Positions 506 through 13,993 of a DNA stretch of 16,368 nucleotides are shown here, one piece after another. The stretch is from Bdellovibrionia bacterium (GTDB taxonomy: Bacteria > Bdellovibrionota > UBA1018): contig JBMSSC010000058.1 of assembly GCA_049424145.1 (NCBI GenBank), positions 1 through 16,368 on the forward strand, in the 5' to 3' direction. The notes beneath the pieces were generated by a model. That model worked only from the letters and a program-made list of their open reading frames with translations, was not told the origin of the DNA and searched no databases. The position numbers and the translations under genes are program-made. Every line of letters begins with the position of its first letter. The stretch's first letter is position 1.

Positions 506-1021
506 ATGCGCTTAACCTCAAAGGGACGGTATGCAGTTCGAGCGATTTTGGACCTCACATTTAATTCCAACGGACGGCCCGTTCGACTTCAAGAAATTTC
601 AGAACGACAAAAGATTTCACTTCATTACTTAGAGCAATTATTTCGCCGCTTAAGAAAAGGGTTGGTGGTGAAAAGTGTACGTGGACCGGGCGGAGGCTAC
701 GTGTTAGCCCGCTCGATGGATGAGATCTCCATTCGCGATGTGCTGACCAGTGTGGGCGAAAACATCAATCCTGCTCGGGACTTAATTGGTACCGGGGATG
801 TGAAAAGCGATACGGTTGAGTTTATTTTAACTAAAACTTACTTTGAGAACCTAGGGACCCTCATGCAGGAGTACCTCACTTCTACCTCTGTTGGAGACTT
901 GGTTCGTAAAGCACGAGGCACCCAGGAGCTTCCTAAAACTCCAGCCGCCTTGTTGGATATCGGTGGGTTAACCCCTCCAGGCCTCCAGCCCAATGTCGGA
1001 AAAGGTCGCGAGTTATCTTGA
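506..1021 (+). CDS. Rrf2-family transcriptional regulator, IscR-like DNA-binding domain, no cysteines
   Basis: N-terminus MRLTSKGRYAV...ISERQKISLHYLEQLF.RLRK...SVRGPGGGY closely follows the IscR winged helix. GGAG SD at 493-496. Directly upstream of a cysteine desulfurase. Fe-S ligands are absent, so the symbol iscR is not assigned. Confidence 0.93.
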   Translation: MRLTSKGRYAVRAILDLTFNSNGRPVRLQEISERQKISLHYLEQLFRRLRKGLVVKSVRGPGGGYVLARSMDEISIRDVLTSVGENINPARDLIGTGDVKSDTVEFILTKTYFENLGTLMQEYLTSTSVGDLVRKARGTQELPKTPAALLDIGGLTPPGLQPNVGKGRELS

Positions 1022-2168
1022 TTCAAATGCAGGGGCGCCTCTTCATCCAGCTGTGGTGGAGGCGCTTTCTCATTTCTTAAAGCGTCCATCAATCTATTTC
1101 GGAAACCCCTCTAGCCCTCATTCTGTGGGCCGAGCTTCGAAGAAAATTCTAGCCCAAGCGCAAGAGAAGGTAGCAACTTCCTTAGGCTTGTCATCGTCTT
1201 TTGGGCAGGTGTCTGGACAATTCTGTTTCACGTCCTCAGGAACGGAAGCCAATCAAACCATCATTCGCTCGGTCTTTGAGCCCTTATTGGAGCAGGGAAA
1301 AAAGCCTCATTGGATTCTAACTCAAGCGGAGCACCCCTCGGTGGTGAAGATGGTCCGTTGGCTCACGTCGCAAGGAGGGGAGGTGAGTTTTTTATCCCTC
1401 GATGAGAGGGGACAGCCGCAGGTGGATCAATTAGAAGATGAGATTCGATCTGAGACGGCTTTAATGAGCCTGATTTGGGTGCATAATGAGACGGGCGTGA
1501 TTACGGATGTGGCCAAAGCCTCAGCCATCGCCGAGCGAAGAGGGCTCCCTCTGCATTTGGATGGAGCTCAGGCCTGGGGGAAGATTTCCCTCGATCTTTC
1601 TCAATGCGGAGCCGATTGGGTGAGCTTTTCCGGGCACAAGATCGGTGCTCTGGCTGGGGTGGGCGTCCTTTGGGCCAGGCAGGGAAAAAAAATCAGATCC
1701 CCCCTTTTTGGCACGGGCTGGGGTGGGCGTGGCGGTACAGAGAACCTCCTTGGGATCTTGAGCCTGGGGGAAGCTGCTCAAGCCTTGTGTCCCACTCAGT
1801 GGAGCAAGCAGGTCACTCCCCTGCGAGATCAACTGGAGGCCTGGGTGATGAGTCAAATCGATGGGGTGATGATCAATGGCCAGGGGGCCCCTCGAGTAGG
1901 AAATACCTCGAGCTTGAGCTTTCATGGGATTGAAAAAGAAGGACTGGTCATGGCGCTCGATCTAGCCGGTTTTTGTGTGAGCTCGGGGGCTGCCTGCCAG
2001 ACGGGCGTGGCTGAGCCCTCAGCCACGCTGCTTGCCCTGGGGAGAACTCCAGGACAAGCCAAGGGCTCGATTCGAGTTTCTTTGTCTGCATGCACCTCGG
2101 AGCAGGAGATGAGTCGATTTGCTCAAGCTCTTCAGAGGACGGTCGAGAGGGTTCGGAGGTTACAATGA
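993..2168 (+). CDS. iscS: Cysteine desulfurase, group I (IscS/NifS family), PLP-dependent
   Basis: Motifs YLD, GNPSS.H, FTSSGTEAN, EHPSV, HNETG, HLDGAQ, SGHK (PLP lysine), RGGTEN, VSSGAAC (catalytic Cys loop) and IRVS. Confidence 0.93.
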   Translation: MSEKVASYLDSNAGAPLHPAVVEALSHFLKRPSIYFGNPSSPHSVGRASKKILAQAQEKVATSLGLSSSFGQVSGQFCFTSSGTEANQTIIRSVFEPLLEQGKKPHWILTQAEHPSVVKMVRWLTSQGGEVSFLSLDERGQPQVDQLEDEIRSETALMSLIWVHNETGVITDVAKASAIAERRGLPLHLDGAQAWGKISLDLSQCGADWVSFSGHKIGALAGVGVLWARQGKKIRSPLFGTGWGGRGGTENLLGILSLGEAAQALCPTQWSKQVTPLRDQLEAWVMSQIDGVMINGQGAPRVGNTSSLSFHGIEKEGLVMALDLAGFCVSSGAACQTGVAEPSATLLALGRTPGQAKGSIRVSLSACTSEQEMSRFAQALQRTVERVRRLQ

Positions 2169-2199
2169 AGAACGGTTCATTTTTAGAAAGAGGCGGTTC

Positions 2200-3303
2200 T
2201 TGACCAACATCGGGGTGAAACAAAAAGTCTTAGTGGGAATCAGTGGGGGACTCTCCAGCGCTCTCACTGCCGCGTTACTGAAGACTCAAGGGTATGCAGT
2301 CGAAGGGGCCTTCATTGATTTGTCTTCAGAGCTGGTGCAGGGCTTTAAAAGCCGCTGTAGGGAGGGGTCGAAGGCCCAGGGCCTCGAGTTGGCGCAGAGG
2401 CTTTCGGAAAAAATCGGCATCCCACTTCATGTCATCGATGCATCGGCTTTATTTGAGGCCCAGGTGATGGATCCCTCGGTTCATCGCGCGCTCATGAACC
2501 AAACGTTTAACCCGTGCCTGGCTTGCACGCGCGATGTGAAGATTCGTCTTCTTTTTGAAAAAGCCGAGGAGTCTGGGATTCAGTGGATTGCTACAGGGCA
2601 TTTTGCTCAAACGTCAACGGATCCTGTTACGGGTCAAGTGAGTCTGCTCAAGGCCTTGGATCCAAGCTTAGATGAGAGCTATTTTTTGTCCTCCTTAGGA
2701 ACTCAGCAGGTGAGTCGGCTTCTGCTGCCTTTAGGGGGGTTGAGTAAAAAGATGATTGAAAAAATCGCTGAAAAGTCTGAAGTCTCTCAAGTCCTCAAAG
2801 GCGAGCGTGGATTTCGTGGGTTTCGTGGTTTTGATGATGAGTCGATTTTTGCTCAGACAAAAACCTGCTTTGTCGAGGAGCCTGAGTTCCTCGCCTTTAT
2901 GGAAAAGCGCGTGGCTCCCTCGCTCAGTCATCTGCGAGTGATTAAAAAAGCGATGCAGAAGTCGGAGAGTGAAATTTTTGACTCAGCGTCGGGTTTTCAA
3001 TCGCGTGGCGGTTCCATGGAGGTTCAGTCCCAAGAACACGTGTTGAGCGTCGTTCAGGTGAGTTGGGTTCGCCCGATGAATCAGTTGAAGGGCTTTCAAG
3101 GGAGTGTCAAGTTTGCTCCCGATCAACCTGAGTTTCCCGGCGTTTTTACTTGCTTTGAGAACCACACCGTGCAAGTCCGAATCTCTGAGAAACCTGGAGA
3201 TTTACTTCCCGGGATGGCCGTCGCTTTCTATCAGGGACAAGAGGTGTTAGGAGCAGGGATCTTAGATCGGATGAAGGATCCCCTAGGAGCAGCCAGGCGG
3301 TGA
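2200..3303 (+). CDS. MnmA/TrmU-like tRNA 2-thiouridylase homologue with degenerate motifs
   Basis: MnmA fold recognisable throughout: KVLVGISGG, LLKTQGY.VEG, NPCLAC, IATGH, D.SYFL, PLG.L.K, CF, and C-terminal PG..VAFY.G.EVLGAG.I. Start moved from 2119 to TTG 2200 (AAAGAGG SD at 2187-2193); GTG 2215 is an alternative. Several catalytic and tRNA-binding residues are substituted. Confidence 0.85.
   Translation: MTNIGVKQKVLVGISGGLSSALTAALLKTQGYAVEGAFIDLSSELVQGFKSRCREGSKAQGLELAQRLSEKIGIPLHVIDASALFEAQVMDPSVHRALMNQTFNPCLACTRDVKIRLLFEKAEESGIQWIATGHFAQTSTDPVTGQVSLLKALDPSLDESYFLSSLGTQQVSRLLLPLGGLSKKMIEKIAEKSEVSQVLKGERGFRGFRGFDDESIFAQTKTCFVEEPEFLAFMEKRVAPSLSHLRVIKKAMQKSESEIFDSASGFQSRGGSMEVQSQEHVLSVVQVSWVRPMNQLKGFQGSVKFAPDQPEFPGVFTCFENHTVQVRISEKPGDLLPGMAVAFYQGQEVLGAGILDRMKDPLGAARR
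2806..2832 (+). repeat. In-frame 9-bp tandem repeat x3 (cgtggNttt) encoding RGF-RGF-RGF
   Basis: cgtggattt cgtgggttt cgtggtttt, differing only at the Gly wobble position. Confidence 0.85.
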
Positions 3304-3474: not shown

Positions 3475-5025
3475 GTGAGTCGTTCGAAGTACATTCTGAA
3501 AACCTTAGGCTGTAAGGCCAATCTTTACGATAGTCAGGTGTTGGAAAAAGAACTCAAGGAGCGGGGTTGGGCTCCAGAGAATTCTTCTCCCTTAGCTCGC
3601 GATGGGGGAGCAGACCTGGTGATCATTAATAGTTGCACCGTGACGAATGAGGCGGATCGGCAGACTCGAAAGTTAGCCTCTCAGCTGGCACGAGAGAATC
3701 CCCAAGCCTCAGTTGTGGTGACGGGATGTGGGGCTGAGGTGGATCCTCAGGGTTTGCTCCAAGTCCCAGGCGTTCAGTGGGTGGTGGGAAATCAAGATAA
3801 GACCCGATTGGTGGATTTGGTTCAGTCTAAAATAGATTCGCATATCCTTAACACTTCTCCCAGTCATCCTGAAATCCTAGGCGGGGTCCAAAACTACTCG
3901 GAGATTCTCTCTCGGCATCCCATGGATCGCCCTTGGCCTTCGGCCGTCGAGTCTTTTTCACCGCCTCCGACTTATTCGACTCAGTCGGATCACGGCTTTG
4001 TCGATAAGACTCGAGCCTTTGTAAAAATCCAAGAAGGATGTAACTCTTTTTGTACTTACTGCATCATTCCCTATGGACGAGGTCCTTCTCGAAGCCTCGA
4101 TCCCGATCGATTGATTCAGCAAATTCAAAACCTGGTGGATCAAGGAGTAAAAGAAGTCATCCTCACGGGAACGAATCTGGGAGATTATGGATCTTCTGAA
4201 GCAGGGATAACTCAAGGAACTGAGTCACTCGCATCCAATAAAACTGAAAAACTTTTAAAACTCATTGAAGCCATCTTGGAGAAAACACCGCTAGCTCGTC
4301 TTCGTTTAAGCTCGCTTGACCCAGGGGAGATCACCTCAGAGCTTACGGACTTTATGGCTGAAAATCCAAGGCTCTGTCCCCATTTTCATGTTTCTCTTCA
4401 AAGTCCTCACAGTCGAATCTTAAAGCTCATGAAACGAAACTATCGCTTTGAGGAGGTGGAGGAGTGCTTATTGAGAATCTCAAAGATTCCTGCCCCGGTG
4501 GGAGGAGTCTTTGTCGGGATGGACGTGATTACGGGCTTTCCTGGAGAAACGAAAGAAGAGTTTGATTGGACTCTGAAAGCTTTGGAGTCTCTGCCCTGGA
4601 GTAGGCTCCATGTGTTTCCCTACAGTGAAAGAAACGGTACGCCAGCCACACGTCTCCCACACCCTGTGCGACCTGAGGAGAGAGTGCGTCGAGCTCGAGC
4701 CCTCAATGAGCTGAGCCTCGAGCGCCAAAAGCAAAATGCAAAAACCATCATTGCTCACTGTCAAGCTCACGGGCTGCAATTGGAGAATATCTTGATGGAA
4801 AAGCCAAGCTTAGGATCCAGTGAAACGCAGGGGCAGACTCGTAAAGTTTGGGTTTCTGGCCTAACACCGAATTACCTTCGAGTTTTGGTGCAGGGCCAAA
4901 AGATTCCTCAACGAAATCAACTCGTGTCTGCTCAACCCATCGATCTGATGATTGACTCTAAGGCCAAGGATGTGGCGTTCGTGGTGGATCAATTAGCGGA
5001 GACTGAACCAGCGGATCGTCTCTAA
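3475..5025 (+). CDS. mtaB: tRNA t6A37 methylthiotransferase (radical SAM MTTase, MtaB family)
   Basis: N-terminal cluster Cys in TLGCKAN.YDS, INSCTVT and VTGC. Radical SAM motif KIQEGCNSFCTYCIIP. Also RLRLSSLDP, HFHVSLQS, DVITGFPGET, LHVFPYSER.GTPA and C-terminal GLTPNYLRV typical of MtaB. Confidence 0.92.
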   Translation: MSRSKYILKTLGCKANLYDSQVLEKELKERGWAPENSSPLARDGGADLVIINSCTVTNEADRQTRKLASQLARENPQASVVVTGCGAEVDPQGLLQVPGVQWVVGNQDKTRLVDLVQSKIDSHILNTSPSHPEILGGVQNYSEILSRHPMDRPWPSAVESFSPPPTYSTQSDHGFVDKTRAFVKIQEGCNSFCTYCIIPYGRGPSRSLDPDRLIQQIQNLVDQGVKEVILTGTNLGDYGSSEAGITQGTESLASNKTEKLLKLIEAILEKTPLARLRLSSLDPGEITSELTDFMAENPRLCPHFHVSLQSPHSRILKLMKRNYRFEEVEECLLRISKIPAPVGGVFVGMDVITGFPGETKEEFDWTLKALESLPWSRLHVFPYSERNGTPATRLPHPVRPEERVRRARALNELSLERQKQNAKTIIAHCQAHGLQLENILMEKPSLGSSETQGQTRKVWVSGLTPNYLRVLVQGQKIPQRNQLVSAQPIDLMIDSKAKDVAFVVDQLAETEPADRL

Positions 5026-7083
5026 ATTGCCTTGATGGGTTTGTTGGGTTGCTCCCTCAATTTTTGCTGTGATCTGAAAGTGCTTGAGGGATTTTGGGAT
5101 TTGTACTTTCCAGACGAAGGCTTGGGTTTCCCCGGAGTCTAATGGACTGATGGCGAGGGGCTCTCCTAATTCGATGAGATGAGGTGACATGCCATCGTTT
5201 TGGGAGTTCTGATTAAGAAACACTCGAACCCGTGCCTCGGATTCTTGCGATCGCGTGGCTCCATAGTTTTTCACTCGCAGCTCGAGAGTTCCCACTCCGT
5301 GTTTGCGGGTGAGGTGATGGACTGTCCAGTTTAAGTCTTCAGGAAAGATGGAGAGGTCCGCTCCTTGGGTTTGAATGCGATTCTCTCGTGGAATGGAGAG
5401 CGCATTCAGAGGCGAGATGGCTTGAATGTGATCCGCCGTCACCCGCCAGTTCTCAAGTCCCGTATCTTCGAGTCCGTCTAACGAGATGAAGCGTGGGAGG
5501 CGACGTTTGAGAAACTGTAAGGCTTCAATGAGTCCGCCTCCTGTGGCCATGCGGTAGGTGCGATTCAATTCAAGCGGTTGCCCTTGAACTCGAATAGCCG
5601 CAACTGGTGGGATTCGCTGGGTAGAGAACTCGGGTTCGGATTGACTGCCTAAAACAAAGACTTGAGTCAGTGGCGTCATGGGAGGTTGAGGATCTTCAGA
5701 AGAGAGGAGGTCGAATTCGGTTTCCGATTTGGACCATGAAAAAATGGGATCATAAATGAGGCTTAAGCCTGAGGTATTGAGGAGTCCTAGGGTTCCTAGC
5801 CGGTGGGTAGAAAAGAAGAACGAGAGAATCCACTTCAAAGTGCGCCCGGAGAGGGGGAGGAGCTTAACGCTCCACGATTTTTGAGAGACGGGGTTATAGA
5901 CTGCTGGATTCATCTGAAAGATATCGGAACGAGTGATTTCTCCCTCATGGAGTCCTCCGTAGATGAACTGGGTACTCTCCATTGCAAAATCAGCATGCGT
6001 GGACTGAAGGTAGGCGTCGGTGACGAGGTTTCCAATGGAGTTGTTCTGTCCCAGACGAGCAAGCTCCACTTGACTCTCACCAATGCGCTCGGAGAACAAG
6101 GGGCCTAGACGTCCTTCAATGCGTTGCTCCAGATCGAAGACTCGTTGAGCAATTTGGGGGTCTTCAGGAATGCTCCCATCAATGGGCAGAAGTCGATAGC
6201 TCTGCAGGCGAGCGGTTCCTCCTTCGACCGTAAGATCCACTTTTCCTAAGTACCGTCCCCAGGAGCCTGCTTCAACCAACCAGGCAAGGCGTCCATTCGA
6301 ACGCCTGACTTCGATGGGTTCGGTGAGCTTCACATGATCATGGGCACCAATGATCAAATCCACCTCATGAGACAGTCTTAAGATCTTCTCATTCACCCAG
6401 TTGGAGTTGTGAGAGAGAAGGACGATCACATCGGCTTGCCCCTCTTCTTTGAGACGCTTGGCCAGGTTTCGCGTGCTTAGAAAAGGCTCTCGGATTTGAA
6501 TGGGAGCAAAGAACGAATCAAAAACGAACTCATAAGTGGAGAGCCCAATGAAGGCGATCTTGATGCCTTGGAGTTCTTGAATGAAGTAGGGTTGGACGTG
6601 GGCTCTAAATTCGTCTTTTCGAGGGTAGTCGTCTAGTTTGAGATTTTCAGAGAGAAATTTCACCTTGGAGTGGGCCTGCTCCAGGGTGTCCAGTAGAATA
6701 TCCGGGCCGTTGATCCAGTCGTGATTCCCAATGACCGCAGCATCATATCCAATCTCATTCATCATTTGGATGCTTTGGAGTCCACAGCTCTCCGTGTAGT
6801 AGAGGTCCCCTTCGGACCAATCCCCTCCATCAAGCAAAAGTGTTGAGGGGTTTTGCCGTTTCAAACGATCCACTAAGGTCTTCAGTCGAGCCACCCCACC
6901 TAATTGAAGCGGACTTTTATCGGGACGAAAATGAGAGTGAAGGTCATTGGTGTGAAGAAGGGTAATGGTTTTGAGGGGCGAGGAGGACAAACGGGAACGA
7001 GAGGCCTTGGCAGGCGAACTGAGTGCGGCCAAAATCATGAAGTAACCCACGAGTTTAACGAGAAAAGTCGTATTTTCCTTCAT
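4993..7083 (-). CDS. Exported metallophosphoesterase / 5'-nucleotidase family protein with C-terminal CARDB-like Ig domain
   Basis: Signal peptide ending AKA. Calcineurin-like motifs HTNDLHS, DGGD, GNHD, LSH and GAHDH; EAG.WG.YLG; 5'-nucleotidase C-domain IGNLVTDA. Tail ADLSI...LRVKNYG...ISPLDSGET...ITAKIE...N resembles CARDB. Start moved to ATG 7083 (GGGGGA upstream). Confidence 0.88.
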   Translation of the reverse strand: MKENTTFLVKLVGYFMILAALSSPAKASRSRLSSSPLKTITLLHTNDLHSHFRPDKSPLQLGGVARLKTLVDRLKRQNPSTLLLDGGDWSEGDLYYTESCGLQSIQMMNEIGYDAAVIGNHDWINGPDILLDTLEQAHSKVKFLSENLKLDDYPRKDEFRAHVQPYFIQELQGIKIAFIGLSTYEFVFDSFFAPIQIREPFLSTRNLAKRLKEEGQADVIVLLSHNSNWVNEKILRLSHEVDLIIGAHDHVKLTEPIEVRRSNGRLAWLVEAGSWGRYLGKVDLTVEGGTARLQSYRLLPIDGSIPEDPQIAQRVFDLEQRIEGRLGPLFSERIGESQVELARLGQNNSIGNLVTDAYLQSTHADFAMESTQFIYGGLHEGEITRSDIFQMNPAVYNPVSQKSWSVKLLPLSGRTLKWILSFFFSTHRLGTLGLLNTSGLSLIYDPIFSWSKSETEFDLLSSEDPQPPMTPLTQVFVLGSQSEPEFSTQRIPPVAAIRVQGQPLELNRTYRMATGGGLIEALQFLKRRLPRFISLDGLEDTGLENWRVTADHIQAISPLNALSIPRENRIQTQGADLSIFPEDLNWTVHHLTRKHGVGTLELRVKNYGATRSQESEARVRVFLNQNSQNDGMSPHLIELGEPLAISPLDSGETQAFVWKVQIPKSLKHFQITAKIEGATQQTHQGNLETIRWFSLR

Positions 7084-7113
7084 GGATCCCCCCGGCTTCA
7101 ATCATTCACTCCC

Positions 7114-10378: not shown

Positions 10379-11227
10379 TTACCAGACGAAAAGAAGGCCA
10401 CCGGTGACGGTGTAGAAATTTCCAGTTAAGTTGGGGACCCCGACGGATTGAAAAAGCGTAGTGAACGTATCTTTGAAGGTCACCGTATGAAACTTTCCTT
10501 CGACCTGAAAGTAGGTTTTTCTTGGGCTAATGACGAACTCCAGTCCTGCGCCTAAGCTAATGCCCAAGCTTGTGTCGTTGTCTTGAGAGGCTTGGGCATT
10601 GGAGTTTTGGGTTTTTGAAAACGATCCCACCCCGGCTAAAAGGTAAGGGCTGGCAAAACTAATGGCAGAGCTGAGGTCGCGGGTTTGAAGGTAGTACTTG
10701 ATATCCACGCCCGCATGAACCATGTTGACATCCACATGGCCTAAGCCTTGAGCCGTGGTTTGAAAGAATTGTTGAGCGGTAAAAAAGCCTAAATCAAGGG
10801 CTACGTTAAAATCAAACCAGTAATGAAGTTTGAAGTCCACAACGGGGAATCCTCCCTGCCAAAGAGCTCCGCGGTTTCCATCCACGATTTGTGCTCCGAT
10901 TCCTAAGCTCACGCCAAAGAATCGACCGTATTGAAAGAATTTTGAATCGGCCTCTTCATCGGCAAGACTGTGAAATTCTCCGTAACTGGTAAATGGAGTG
11001 GTGCTGTAGTCTTCTTCCTCCGATTGTTCGGCCTTGTTGGGTTGGTCCTGAGATGAAGGAGAGGATGAGTTTTCTTCTTGAGGAGCTCTGCTTGCTGCAG
11101 GAGGCGGCGCGCCTTGGGAGCTTGAGGGAAATAAGGCACTTAAGATTAACAGAATCAAGCAGAGGATGAAAAAACACAGCCTCACAGCGGGCTGGTTCAT
11201 CCACTGAGCCCAGCGAATCCACTCCAT
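10379..11227 (-). CDS. Outer-membrane beta-barrel protein (small, probably 8-stranded) with low-complexity N-terminal extension
   Basis: Hydrophobic signal-like segment, a Ser/Pro/Glu-rich stretch, then amphipathic strands (FFGVSLGIG, GVDIKYY, SPYLLAGVG, LGISLGAGLEF), ending in aromatic ...GLLFVW. Start moved to ATG 11227 (AAAGGT upstream, just after the preceding stop). Confidence 0.75.
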   Translation of the reverse strand: MEWIRWAQWMNQPAVRLCFFILCLILLILSALFPSSSQGAPPPAASRAPQEENSSSPSSQDQPNKAEQSEEEDYSTTPFTSYGEFHSLADEEADSKFFQYGRFFGVSLGIGAQIVDGNRGALWQGGFPVVDFKLHYWFDFNVALDLGFFTAQQFFQTTAQGLGHVDVNMVHAGVDIKYYLQTRDLSSAISFASPYLLAGVGSFSKTQNSNAQASQDNDTSLGISLGAGLEFVISPRKTYFQVEGKFHTVTFKDTFTTLFQSVGVPNLTGNFYTVTGGLLFVW

Positions 11228-11237
11228 GAGACGACCT

Positions 11238-11744
11238 TTAGAAATAAAAGTGAATGCCGGCATCGAGAAAGCTCGCCCCAAAGGATTTTAAAGCGTAAGT
11301 ACCGGTGCCATTATCAAAAGTCGCTCCAGTTTCCAGCGCGAAGCCTACGGAGTCTAGGCCTGGGATGAAGAACTCCACCCCCATGCCTGCTAAAAACTGA
11401 ACCCCTGCTTGAGGCGCAGAGATGAGACCAAACCCCCCTACGAGATAAAAGTTGTAGTACGGTTCTAAGATGACATTTTTAAAAAGCTTTACTGCCGTAG
11501 CGTAACTAGAGGGTGAGGTAGTTGCAAATTGCAGGATCCCTTCAATGGCTAGGTCCCTGTGTAGAGCGTACTTTAAGCTGATTCCAGGGATCTTAAAACC
11601 ATTGGAATGGTAGCCTGAGAACTGAGCGTTGTATCCCAATCCCAATCGGCCTGTGAGTTCCTTACTCCATCCAAGTTGAGATGAAGTCAGGAATAAAACT
11701 GAAATCCATAGATGGAAAAGTCGGAGAGATTGTTTCAGATTCAT
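11238..11744 (-). CDS. Small outer-membrane beta-barrel protein
   Basis: Signal peptide (…QLGWS-KE), alternating strands (RLGLGY, GISLKY, NFYLVGGFG, GMGVEFF) and C-terminal beta-signal DAGIHFYF. Confidence 0.75.
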   Translation of the reverse strand: MNLKQSLRLFHLWISVLFLTSSQLGWSKELTGRLGLGYNAQFSGYHSNGFKIPGISLKYALHRDLAIEGILQFATTSPSSYATAVKLFKNVILEPYYNFYLVGGFGLISAPQAGVQFLAGMGVEFFIPGLDSVGFALETGATFDNGTGTYALKSFGASFLDAGIHFYF

Positions 11745-11753
11745 GGTCCAATA

Positions 11754-11782
11754 AGAATAAATCTAAAACAGAGGCTTGGCAA
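11754..11782 (-). promoter_or_regulatory. Putative internal sigma70-type promoter for the two OMP genes
   Basis: Minus strand TTGCCA (11782-11777), 17 nt spacer, TATTCT (11759-11754), filling the 61-nt AT-rich gap after the bamB-like gene. Confidence 0.55.
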
Positions 11783-11805
11783 TAAGACTGATTTAAACCT
11801 TTAGT

Positions 11806-13023
11806 TCAAAATGAACGAAATGAGTAGGGATCAACGCCTGCGTTTAAAAGTTTCTTATTGGAATGAAGGTGTTTGAGAGAAAAGCAATAGAGATTCCCTG
11901 CGCTGGAGAGGAAGAAGAGTTTTTGGCTCTCTCGATCAAATAAAGGAGAACCGTAAAACCCACTTCCATAGCCGAGATTCATTCGATAAAGACCGCTGCC
12001 TGTTTTCTTATCTAGAACATAAAGATACTGATAAGAGGATCCTACAATCACATACTCGTCTGTGATTGCAAGCTGCGTGGGAGTGCCGCCATCGAGTTGA
12101 AACTTCCAAAAGACCTGGGAGTTTTCTTTAGAAAGACTGTAGATGAAACCATCTGAAGAGGGCAAGTAGAGTCTTTCGCCTTCAATGACGACATCTTTAC
12201 TTCCTCCTGCGTCAAAGCGCCAGAGGGTGGCGCCGCCGTTTCGTTTGATCGCATACAAAGCGCCATCATAAGAGGGTAAGTAAATGATGCCGTTTTCTAA
12301 AACGGGCTGGGCGTTCACGTCGGTGAATTTATTGGAGGAGTGAAGTCTGCGCTCCCACTTGAGCTGCCCTTCTTCTAAAGAAAGAGCCACTAGAAATCCA
12401 TCACTGAAGCCGCTTAAGACTTCATTCCCATCGACCAGGGGAGCTGAAGCTCCGTAGATGCTTGGCAGTCCGGAGCGTTGCCGTCGATAATGCCAAAGCC
12501 ATTTTCCTGTGCCCGCGTCCAAGGCGTAAACAACATCGTCGGAGGTGGTCACAAAGACCCGACCTCCTGAAATGGTGGGTTTTGAAACCACTGGATTTCT
12601 CACCTCGTAGCGCCAATTGATTTTTCCAGTCTCAGCGTTCACGGAGTAGATGAAGCCATCGGCGGCACCGAAATAAACGGAACCCCGATGAAGGCTTAAG
12701 GGACTTACGACTCCGCCATGCAAGGGGAGGCTCCACCGCTTTTGATTGATGGACGGATAAAGCGCAGTTAACCCTTCCGTTCGATTTCCAAAAATTAACG
12801 TGTCTTCAGAAAGAACTGGATTGGAGAAGTCCACTCCCGGGGAGGACCCCATGAAAGGCTGGGTCGTACTTAAAGTCCATTTACGAGTCATGATCCGGGG
12901 CTCTTCTTTGAGCTCAGGATGAATCAGTGGGGCGCTACAAGCACCCGAGAAGAGGCTTAAGCCGAGGAGTAAACCACACCAAGAAATCGACGAGTTGAAC
13001 CTCAGCCCTTCATTAAGGTTCAA
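11806..13023 (-). CDS. bamB: PQQ-like beta-propeller lipoprotein, BamB-like
   Basis: Lipobox LFSGA-C. Repeated blades (YSVNAETGKINW, YALDAGTGKWLW, ALSLEEGQLKW, YAIKRNGGATLW). Lies directly downstream of a YfgM-like gene and near der, as in yfgM-bamB-der clusters. Start uncertain (TTG 13023 used; see findings). Confidence 0.75.
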   Translation of the reverse strand: MNLNEGLRFNSSISWCGLLLGLSLFSGACSAPLIHPELKEEPRIMTRKWTLSTTQPFMGSSPGVDFSNPVLSEDTLIFGNRTEGLTALYPSINQKRWSLPLHGGVVSPLSLHRGSVYFGAADGFIYSVNAETGKINWRYEVRNPVVSKPTISGGRVFVTTSDDVVYALDAGTGKWLWHYRRQRSGLPSIYGASAPLVDGNEVLSGFSDGFLVALSLEEGQLKWERRLHSSNKFTDVNAQPVLENGIIYLPSYDGALYAIKRNGGATLWRFDAGGSKDVVIEGERLYLPSSDGFIYSLSKENSQVFWKFQLDGGTPTQLAITDEYVIVGSSYQYLYVLDKKTGSGLYRMNLGYGSGFYGSPLFDRESQKLFFLSSAGNLYCFSLKHLHSNKKLLNAGVDPYSFRSF

Positions 13024-13837
13024 GGAGGCTTTTTGAGGCCTCTGCGGCTTGTGAGTAATCCGTGTTGGGTAATTCTGCGAGGATTTGATCATAGGTGCTC
13101 CGGGCTTTGGCTCGATCGGAAAGGGCTTCATAGCAGCGGGCCGTGGCCAGAAGAAGGTCTCCTTTGACCCAGGTTTGTCCCAAACTTAAGGCTTTTTGAA
13201 AAGCGGTAACCGCATCCGATTTTTTTCCGGTGTTTTCTAAAGCATAGCCTAAAGAGCTCAGGGCGAGAGTTTTTTCAAATTTGCTTGAGGCCGATTGAAC
13301 CGACTTCTCAAACCAAGACAGCGATTTGCTGGCCTCACCGTGGCTGTAGTAGAGTTCTCCCAACTTCAGTCGAGCTTCAAACGCAGCTCGAGTGGAGGGG
13401 AATTGGCGAACCACTTCTTCTAGCTTTTTTAAGGTTTCTGGGAATTTCTGATCGACATTCACTGAAACGTAGCGGAGTTGGTCGCGTAAAGCGGCATTCG
13501 CTCGATCTGATTTCTTTTGACTGGTTGATTTTTCAAGGGCGGCGTTCGTCTTTTCGTTTTCTGGGGACGGGGGGGCTTGGAGCGCCTGGACTTCGGATTC
13601 CAGGGCCTTTTCAGCCAGATAAAGGGCATTGCGCGCTTGTTCCGACTGAGTGCCTTTCTGGTTGATGAAGTAAGCCGCGATGAATCCTAAAACCAGCAGC
13701 CCAGCAACACCGGCTAAAAACCAATTTAAATGGTGAGCAATGGAGTCAAAAAAACCATTCAAAGACCTAAGAAATCCATCGGGTCGTTTGATGGATTTAC
13801 GATGCACTGAACCTGAGTTGGAGATGATGGAATCCAT
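13013..13837 (-). CDS. Membrane-anchored tetratricopeptide-repeat protein, YfgM-like
   Basis: Short N-terminus (RKSIKRPDGF), one TM helix (WFLAGVAGLLVLGFIAAYFI), then TPR helices (ARLKLGELYY, LSSLGYALE, LLATARCYE). Upstream of bamB-like gene. Start moved to ATG 13837. Confidence 0.8.
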   Translation of the reverse strand: MDSIISNSGSVHRKSIKRPDGFLRSLNGFFDSIAHHLNWFLAGVAGLLVLGFIAAYFINQKGTQSEQARNALYLAEKALESEVQALQAPPSPENEKTNAALEKSTSQKKSDRANAALRDQLRYVSVNVDQKFPETLKKLEEVVRQFPSTRAAFEARLKLGELYYSHGEASKSLSWFEKSVQSASSKFEKTLALSSLGYALENTGKKSDAVTAFQKALSLGQTWVKGDLLLATARCYEALSDRAKARSTYDQILAELPNTDYSQAAEASKSLLEP

Positions 13838-13993
13838 ATATCTTTCTTTCTCGCATATCCTGAAGGGCATCACAACTGAAACTCGACACTCAAGAGCGGT
13901 CGCCTGAATTTCCAGCTGCTTGAAGGAAGTTCTTTGATAATTGACTTAAATAATTCAGTTTTAGTTCTCCAAGAAATCAGGTAAACCCCCCTC

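Follow-up and report, generated by a model that had tools for sequence, protein, structure and literature searches.

MnmA, the tRNA 2-thiouridylase, is treated as a near-universal enzyme with one function. Its KDQ, RY and PGQ motifs, and also GQRxG and R(Y/S), contact the tRNA. In xenologous gene displacement, an incoming gene assumes the role of a resident housekeeping gene, and the displaced gene is usually lost.

Direct sulfur transfer from the cysteine desulfurase YrvO to MnmA is reported for B. subtilis (PMC5372745), and direct supply by a desulfurase is reported for TtMnmA, the C-type enzyme of Thermus thermophilus (PMC7025502). According to the same source, TtMnmA D13A had no activity and kept cluster binding, and the CC motif was dispensable (PMC7025502). 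Transfer in the one system and supply in the other imply a pre-existing interface between desulfurase and MnmA. Ctu2 is described as an inactive paralogue without the cluster cysteines that partners Ctu1 (PMC10067955).

The window analysed here (the whole stretch of 16,368 nucleotides, contig JBMSSC010000058.1 of the Bdellovibrionia assembly GCA_049424145.1) carries an mnmA homologue between a desulfurase gene and mtaB. Judged from its sequence and its relatives, this gene encodes an MnmA of a kind that has been displaced repeatedly and retained as a pseudoenzyme. That it was displaced, is dead and has been kept for some function is highly probable.

Sequence sets and scoring

Homologues of mnmA were taken from 60 relatives and from the majority of the family's other genomes (75 searched, 60 regions fetched). 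The comparison set comprised 85 near-full copies in operon position (alignment A1). Omitted were one locus (L108) that is a probable contaminant in G064, contig-end fragments from G015, G031, G049 and G074, and G065, G068 and G089, for which the fetched regions gave no complete operon copy. Copies were scored at 25 residues common to C- and D-type enzymes. The set of degenerate (dead) copies comprised 79 sequences of at least 340 aa, namely 53 operon-position copies of the order and 26 copies from families f21 and f16.

Origins of the degenerate state were counted on a tree of iscS, mtaB and rrf2 (the operon tree), because the gene tree of all copies was distorted by long branches. The D-type sequences in the trees were those of the compared genomes. 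dN/dS was calculated pairwise between degenerate copies (Nei-Gojobori); five pairs were saturated, one could not be aligned, and pairs below 55% identity in larger genera were skipped.

Organization of the locus

The gene order is rrf2-iscS-mnmA-mtaB (Table 1). The Rrf2 protein contains no Cys and so is not a cluster-binding IscR. It is strongly conserved (dN/dS 0.02–0.05 in most pairs), and its gene remains with the desulfurase gene in f21, where mnmA and mtaB have left. A separate ISC operon (Rrf2, iscS, iscU, iscA, hscB) is found in this genome on contig C3 (130–3385, minus strand), so the desulfurase beside mnmA is a second, dedicated one.

Table 1. Coordinates of the operon genes and of the motifs of the degenerate mnmA in the window.
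Feature	Position	Strand	Remark
Rrf2-family regulator, zero Cys	506..1021	+	
IscS/NifS-like cysteine desulfurase, candidate partner	993..2168	+	PLP Lys and catalytic Cys motifs present
GAGG, putative Shine-Dalgarno-like sequence	2190..2193	+	6 nt 5' of TTG start at 2200
Degenerate native C-type mnmA	2200..3303	+	367 aa, open frame
PP-loop SGGLSS	2242..2259	+	Ser instead of catalytic Asp
Cys53, first Cys of C-type CC motif; second Cys gone	2356..2358	+	
CxxC (C106, C109), two of three predicted cluster ligands	2515..2526	+	
TGHF, Tyr lost; T-G-H retained, likewise in 91–100% of degenerate copies	2593..2604	+	
LDESYF replacing KDQ[ST]YF	2668..2685	+	
Loop 5' of third Cys, 16 residues longer, KxDSQEI motif lost	2800..2865	+	alignment to intact orthologues
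C223, third predicted cluster ligand	2866..2868	+	
Central PRC-barrel remnant, about 26 residues shorter, without GxHxG and GQRKG	2929..3039	+	
KFAP, AP replacing RS/RY	3109..3120	+	alignment to 2der
MtaB tRNA methylthiotransferase	3475..5025	+	TIGR01579 above cut-off

Downstream, a 5'-nucleotidase-like gene (Metallophos and 5_nucleotid_C domains and a further C-terminal part; 4993–7101, minus strand) lies between mtaB and rnc. Polarity on rnc-era-der was rejected as a reason for retention in this genome because this minus-strand gene intervenes; in a relative, G027, mtaB runs straight into rnc. Envelope genes follow at 10379–13873 on the minus strand: a TPR protein, a BamB-like PQQ propeller, a 168-aa protein with no Pfam match and an OMP beta-barrel.

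The genome is 95% complete. The initial annotation had suggested searching it for a second, canonical mnmA, and such a gene was found on contig C27. It is D-type by the scheme of PMC7025502, with the motifs SGGVDS, NPDILCN, KDQTYF, KKDSTGICF and GQRKG, and its best matches in a plasmid collection were from Bacilli (56–58%) and enterobacteria (55%). The genome also has tRNA genes for the anticodons TTT, TTC and TTG.

Motifs and domains of the operon copy

The uninterrupted frame (2200–3303, 367 aa) described in the initial annotation was confirmed, SGGLSS (2242), CLAC (2515 and 2524), LDESYF (2668) and CF (2866) stand where it had read them, and TGHF and PGM are present. It had also recorded the absence of KKDS/ES before CF, where the KxDSQEI motif is lost, and of the central-domain motifs, where GxHxG and GQRKG are indeed gone. 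Two readings needed revision. What replaces RY is AP and not KF, and the native motif in this group is RS. The three Cys said to remain do so at 2515, 2524 and 2866, but the protein has five in total, with two more at 2356 and 3151.

Compared with C-type enzymes, the copy has lost the PP-loop Asp, the Lys and Gln of KDQ, KxDS, GQRKG, RS/RY and the Gln of PGQ, and it retains S-G-G-x-x-S, T-G-H and the Cys triad. Eleven of the 25 universal residues are changed, against none in 31 intact orthologues. Scores fell below the family cut-offs (TIGR00420, 159 bits, cut-off 236.95; PRK00143, 174.1 bits, cut-off 284). Pfam matched the HUP domain (PF03054) and the C-terminal barrel (PF20258); the central PRC barrel (PF20259) was not matched in this protein and is present in the canonical MnmA of the genome. 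Between alignment anchors, the central stretch has 26 residues fewer than that of intact orthologues. Codon use is ordinary. An imperfect 9-nt tandem repeat (GFR-GFR-GF) was observed at 2800–2835 on the plus strand, within the 16-residue insertion. By descent, the sequence belongs to the C-type MnmA lineage; as an active MnmA it fails on cut-off, PP-loop and domains.

An assembly artefact was excluded as the origin of the shortened centre, since contigs of 4 runs from 3 studies cross it with no gap listed, although one of these runs may be the source of the assembly. A metagenome scan with the protein gave 280 pattern matches, none of which was confirmed, and no RNA holder of the gene was listed.

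An alignment-based model (85 homologues) reached pLDDT 86.2 and pTM 0.87; its weak parts were residues 201–220 (the loop before the third Cys, pLDDT 57–64) and 258–269 (the central remnant, below 50). A single-sequence model reached only pLDDT 35.6. The best Foldseek matches of the alignment-based model were MnmA structures (2hma/2det; TM 0.72, E 1e-26), TtuA matches were weak (TM 0.33–0.35), and the protein is accordingly modelled with the MnmA fold. Atlas searches returned MnmA clusters only and, in the case of the f21 protein, two further clusters from Bdellovibrionota.

Degeneration and second copies in relatives

All 50 operon copies from genomes with a second mnmA had lost at least one universal residue, and 49 had lost at least two. 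Where no second mnmA was found, 31 of 35 had lost none. The exceptions were G088, which lost two residues and lies at a contig end, and three degenerate copies without a second copy found (G028, 74% complete; G085, 85%; G034, 97%). The absence in G034 is probably an assembly gap, because all seven other genomes of its genus have a high-scoring second copy.

These three genomes, together with the retained Cys triad, S-G-G-x-x-S and T-G-H, would suit a protein that is still an enzyme, with residual s2U synthesis or Fe-S sulfurtransferase activity on another substrate. Against this stand the lost PP-loop Asp, whose D13A counterpart abolishes TtMnmA activity (PMC7025502), and the variety of residues that take the place of this Asp from copy to copy, with no new motif in common. 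An enzymatic role is highly improbable. The view of the initial annotation that this is not a tRNA 2-thiouridylase probably holds, judging from the same loss and the reported inactivity of D13A, and no sign was found of the altered substrate that it had offered as an option.

On the operon tree, the degenerate state changed 15 times, with at least 11 changes forced by well-supported branches. Among 11 independent pairs, degeneration followed the second copy about 8 times and the opposite occurred 0 times (sign test, median p 0.008). A tree uniting the dead copies in one clade was rejected (p-AU 0.00014; 16 dead copies among 43 rows). Most second copies are D-type; those of G007, G008 and G039 are C-type of other origin. 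Genus g10 represents the onset of the process, with one intact gene in G061 and two copies in G062, G063 and G009, in which 1–3 residues are lost. Across operon-position copies, losses are graded from 1 to 19.

Descent of the window's copy from the native lineage is indicated by synteny and by the tree, with the caveat of long branches, and a grouping with D-type sequences was rejected, though weakly (p-AU 0.0375). An origin as a duplicate of the D-type copy was rejected on synteny, tree and this p-AU test. The gene had been called a repurposed paralogue; in the sense of a duplicate this does not apply, as the gene is native to the operon and was displaced by a later arrival.

Order of residue loss

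In the 15 least diverged dead copies, the Cys triad was kept in 100% and T-G-H-D-Q in 97%, while R-S was kept in 23%, the KDQ Lys in 27%, K-x-D in 33% and the PP-loop Asp in 67%. The tRNA-contact residues are lost first, then the PP-loop Asp, and the Cys triad last and together. Features retained in the dead copies are the fold, S-x-V-x-A-x-LLKxQG, T-G-H, D-[QE] and PLG.

Of the 79 dead copies, 42 have the whole Cys triad, 35 have none of it and 2 have part of it. Each of 969 control triples, drawn from columns with similar retention, left at least 27 copies in the partial class, with the reservation that kin are not independent. On the operon tree the triad changed 4 times. This all-or-none pattern indicates that the three Cys function jointly, and a role as putative cluster ligands is the simplest account. 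Since selection persists after their loss, the triad is not the universal retained function. The Fe-S or sulfur-carrier role put forward in the initial annotation is not the whole explanation, because the 35 dead copies lacking all three Cys are still kept under selection.

Two substitutions are confined to dead copies. Pro takes the place of the R-S Ser in 27 of 79, against 0 of 118 active-type sequences, with 15 changes on the operon tree; this recurrence may reflect mutational ease. CxxCN has become CxxCH in 23 of 79, again against 0 of 118, and the His might serve as an additional metal ligand. A search for a surface patch particular to dead copies gave weak candidates only (Q28, K/R186, L96, L116).

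Selection on degenerate copies

dN/dS was 0.036–0.26 in all 26 measurable pairs of dead copies (0.036–0.26 in 14 pairs, 0.175 and 0.22 in two, and 0.043–0.164 in 10 of 11 f21 pairs), values that are rough because many dS exceed 1. The least saturated pairs agreed, with 0.143 at dS 0.26, 0.081 at dS 0.49 and 0.215 at dS 0.70. The check on relatives that the initial annotation had called for therefore gave values not near 1. These figures come from relatives only, as the genome has no same-genus relative; strain variants within the gene itself (3 synonymous, 1 non-synonymous) are too few to judge. In g46, whose dead copies lack the Cys and the Asp, dN/dS was 0.06–0.08, compared with 0.09–0.10 for iscS and 0.045 for the D-type mnmA. 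In g28 and g35 it rose to 0.26, above the D-type gene.

The window's copy has no stop at 35–38% identity to intact orthologues. Neutral simulation down to 40% identity produced a mean of 12 stops, and 0 of 200 runs were stop-free. Always-hydrophobic columns were kept at 56 of 66 positions in the N-domain and 22 of 26 in the C-domain. The dead copies are not simply decaying, and the alternative of a gene in early decay, which the initial annotation had left standing, is contradicted by the stop-free frame at this divergence and by dN/dS far below 1 in relatives.

A slower decay without function would have the frame kept, to spare mtaB polarity or the cost of misfolding, until deletion occurs. 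The graded losses (1 to 19), the clean deletion in G027, a frameshift in G255, the values of up to 0.26 in g28 and g35 and the missing central domain of the window's copy all accord with it. It is less easily reconciled with dN/dS of 0.04–0.16 in f21 and 0.06–0.08 in the Cys-less g46, near those of neighbouring active genes, with the triad being held as a unit, or with deletion being possible yet rare. Moreover, f21 retains the dead copy apart from iscS and mtaB, with two matches in 44 of 46 genomes. Such slow decay is decidedly unlikely. Retention for some function is preferred; among the points against it, the window's copy, alone among the 53 operon-position dead copies, lacks the Gly of GQ in the central domain, and may be nearer to loss.

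Family f21 and the wider phylum

Among 201 genomes of the phylum, at least two MnmA matches were found in 44 of 46 genomes of f21, the family that includes Bacteriovorax, and one in 24 of 24 f20 genomes. All 25 f21 genomes inspected had a D-type gene and a dead copy; in 24 of them the two are no more than 6 kb apart, and neither rrf2-iscS nor mtaB is close by. In the tree, the f21 dead copies fall on the side of the native C-type enzymes, though their branches are long. In f16, three genomes have a dead copy, which adjoins iscS in two. Homologues of an f21 copy are named Bacteriovorax sp. (among the 120 listed of 305 proteins).

The f21 neighbourhood (L270, L273, L277, L279, L299) contains a DNA cytosine methylase-like gene and a divergent, degenerate ABC-ATPase-like gene, followed by the dead mnmA, an M28-type peptidase-like gene and the D-type mnmA (names assigned by eye). 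In the single-contig genome G255, one of the 25, the dead copy is frameshifted directly upstream of the D-type gene (L301, 1390–2663); the split is either genuine or a sequencing error. In two f20 genomes (L314 in G118, L316 in G168) the only mnmA is an intact C-type gene flanked by iscS and mtaB; it carries the variants LPCVNCN and GQSKG, and its KKDS(T/Q)GICF loop resembles that of the D-type.

Losses were also found. In G027 (96% complete; L164, contig C16) the dead mnmA is cleanly deleted and the iscS stop abuts the mtaB frame. G176 and G228 keep D-type mnmA, desulfurase and mtaB, and a dead copy was not found in them. In G221 (93% complete) the entire block was not found. G027, G176 and G228 suggest that none of the candidate partners always needs a dead MnmA.

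The f21 arrangement bears on a role as inactive subunit or regulator in the manner of Ctu2/Ncs2, in which the dead copy would bind the D-type MnmA and stabilise, position or throttle it. Proximity to the D-type gene in 24 of 25 genomes, in several arrangements, fits this, as does the precedent of Ctu2 itself, which lacks the cluster Cys and partners Ctu1 (PMC10067955). Yet the f21 linkage may be one ancestral insertion, D-type genes occur in G027, G176 and G228 with the dead copy absent or not found, and the role would have to be newly invented at each of at least 11 origins with unrelated newcomers, C-type in G007, G008 and G039. MnmA is moreover monomeric, which counts against such a partnership. 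On balance this role is unlikely.

No fresh invention per origin is required if native MnmA moonlights with a partner outside the operon, a protein or an RNA, beyond the reach of the newcomer. Retention regardless of where the gene lies and of whether the Cys triad is present speaks for this, as does the nature of what is kept (the fold, S-x-V-x-A-x-LLKxQG, T-G-H, D-[QE] and PLG). On the other side, neither a partner nor a dedicated surface was found, and at least two lineages get by after a clean loss. An outside partner seems rather unlikely.

Discussion

The reading preferred here for the retained job, and held tentatively, is that of a non-catalytic partner of the operon's cysteine desulfurase; it is plausible rather than probable. 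Such a partner would reuse the interface of active MnmAs with their desulfurases (PMC5372745; PMC7025502). The D-type enzyme would now make s2U34, and the protein of the operon copy would be expressed and catalytically inactive. Its tRNA binding would have gone first, perhaps since an inactive protein that still bound tRNA would compete with the newcomer, and the triad in this genome would still hold a [4Fe-4S] cluster. The protein would bind the desulfurase, and sulfur would be handed on, or its flow tuned, toward the D-type MnmA or MtaB.

Core conservation of the desulfurase followed the state of its neighbour (0.956 beside intact copies, 0.881 beside dead copies with Cys, 0.79 beside dead copies without), whereas that of MtaB was 0.966, 0.962 and 0.957 in the same classes. 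The catalytic Cys motif of the operon desulfurase was kept in nearly all rows. The desulfurase trend also fits plain relaxation after the loss of its main client. A partnership with the desulfurase is further opposed by f21, where the dead copy is gone from the rrf2-iscS unit and sits near the D-type gene in 24 of 25 genomes, and by G027, G176 and G228, in which a dead copy is absent or was not found.

More generally, and more tentatively still, C-type MnmA may have a second job that is independent of ATP chemistry, tRNA binding and the cluster. The arrival of a D-type enzyme would then have split the two jobs at least a dozen times in Bdellovibrionota and given rise to an undescribed, Ctu2-like family of pseudoenzymes, adaptors or regulators of tRNA sulfur traffic. 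The displacements amount to a repeated natural experiment in which the chemistry was stripped and the protein kept, which points to a hidden second function. Many of the dead copies are annotated as active thiouridylases (among the 120 listed of 305), and the question is testable in Bacteriovorax.

No paper on dead or duplicated MnmA was found in a literature search; the main text of PMC11656739 makes no mention of such genes, which its supplements may list. The new points are the link with a second gene, the number of independent origins, the sequence in which residues go, the joint fate of the three Cys and the retention across family f21.

With TtMnmA, the window's copy shares the HUP domain and C-terminal barrel, CxxC plus the third Cys, and the first C of CC (PMC7025502). 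Its gene likewise follows a cysteine desulfurase gene, and it descends from intact C-type orthologues of its order. Unlike TtMnmA, it has lost the catalytic and tRNA motifs, its central barrel has collapsed, it scores below the NCBIfam cut-offs and it coexists with a D-type gene. As in B. subtilis YrvO-MnmA, a dedicated desulfurase gene stands directly upstream of mnmA (PMC5372745), but here the mnmA at that position is the dead one, and the gene of working type is on another contig. Like Ctu2/Ncs2, it is a stripped U34-thiolase homologue beside an active one (Ctu1/Ncs6; PMC10067955). It differs in belonging to the MnmA subfamily and not to NcsA/TtuA, in having arisen many times by displacement and not by duplication, and in being sometimes lost. 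As in xenologous gene displacement, a newcomer takes over; here, however, the displaced mnmA has been kept under selection in most lineages examined.
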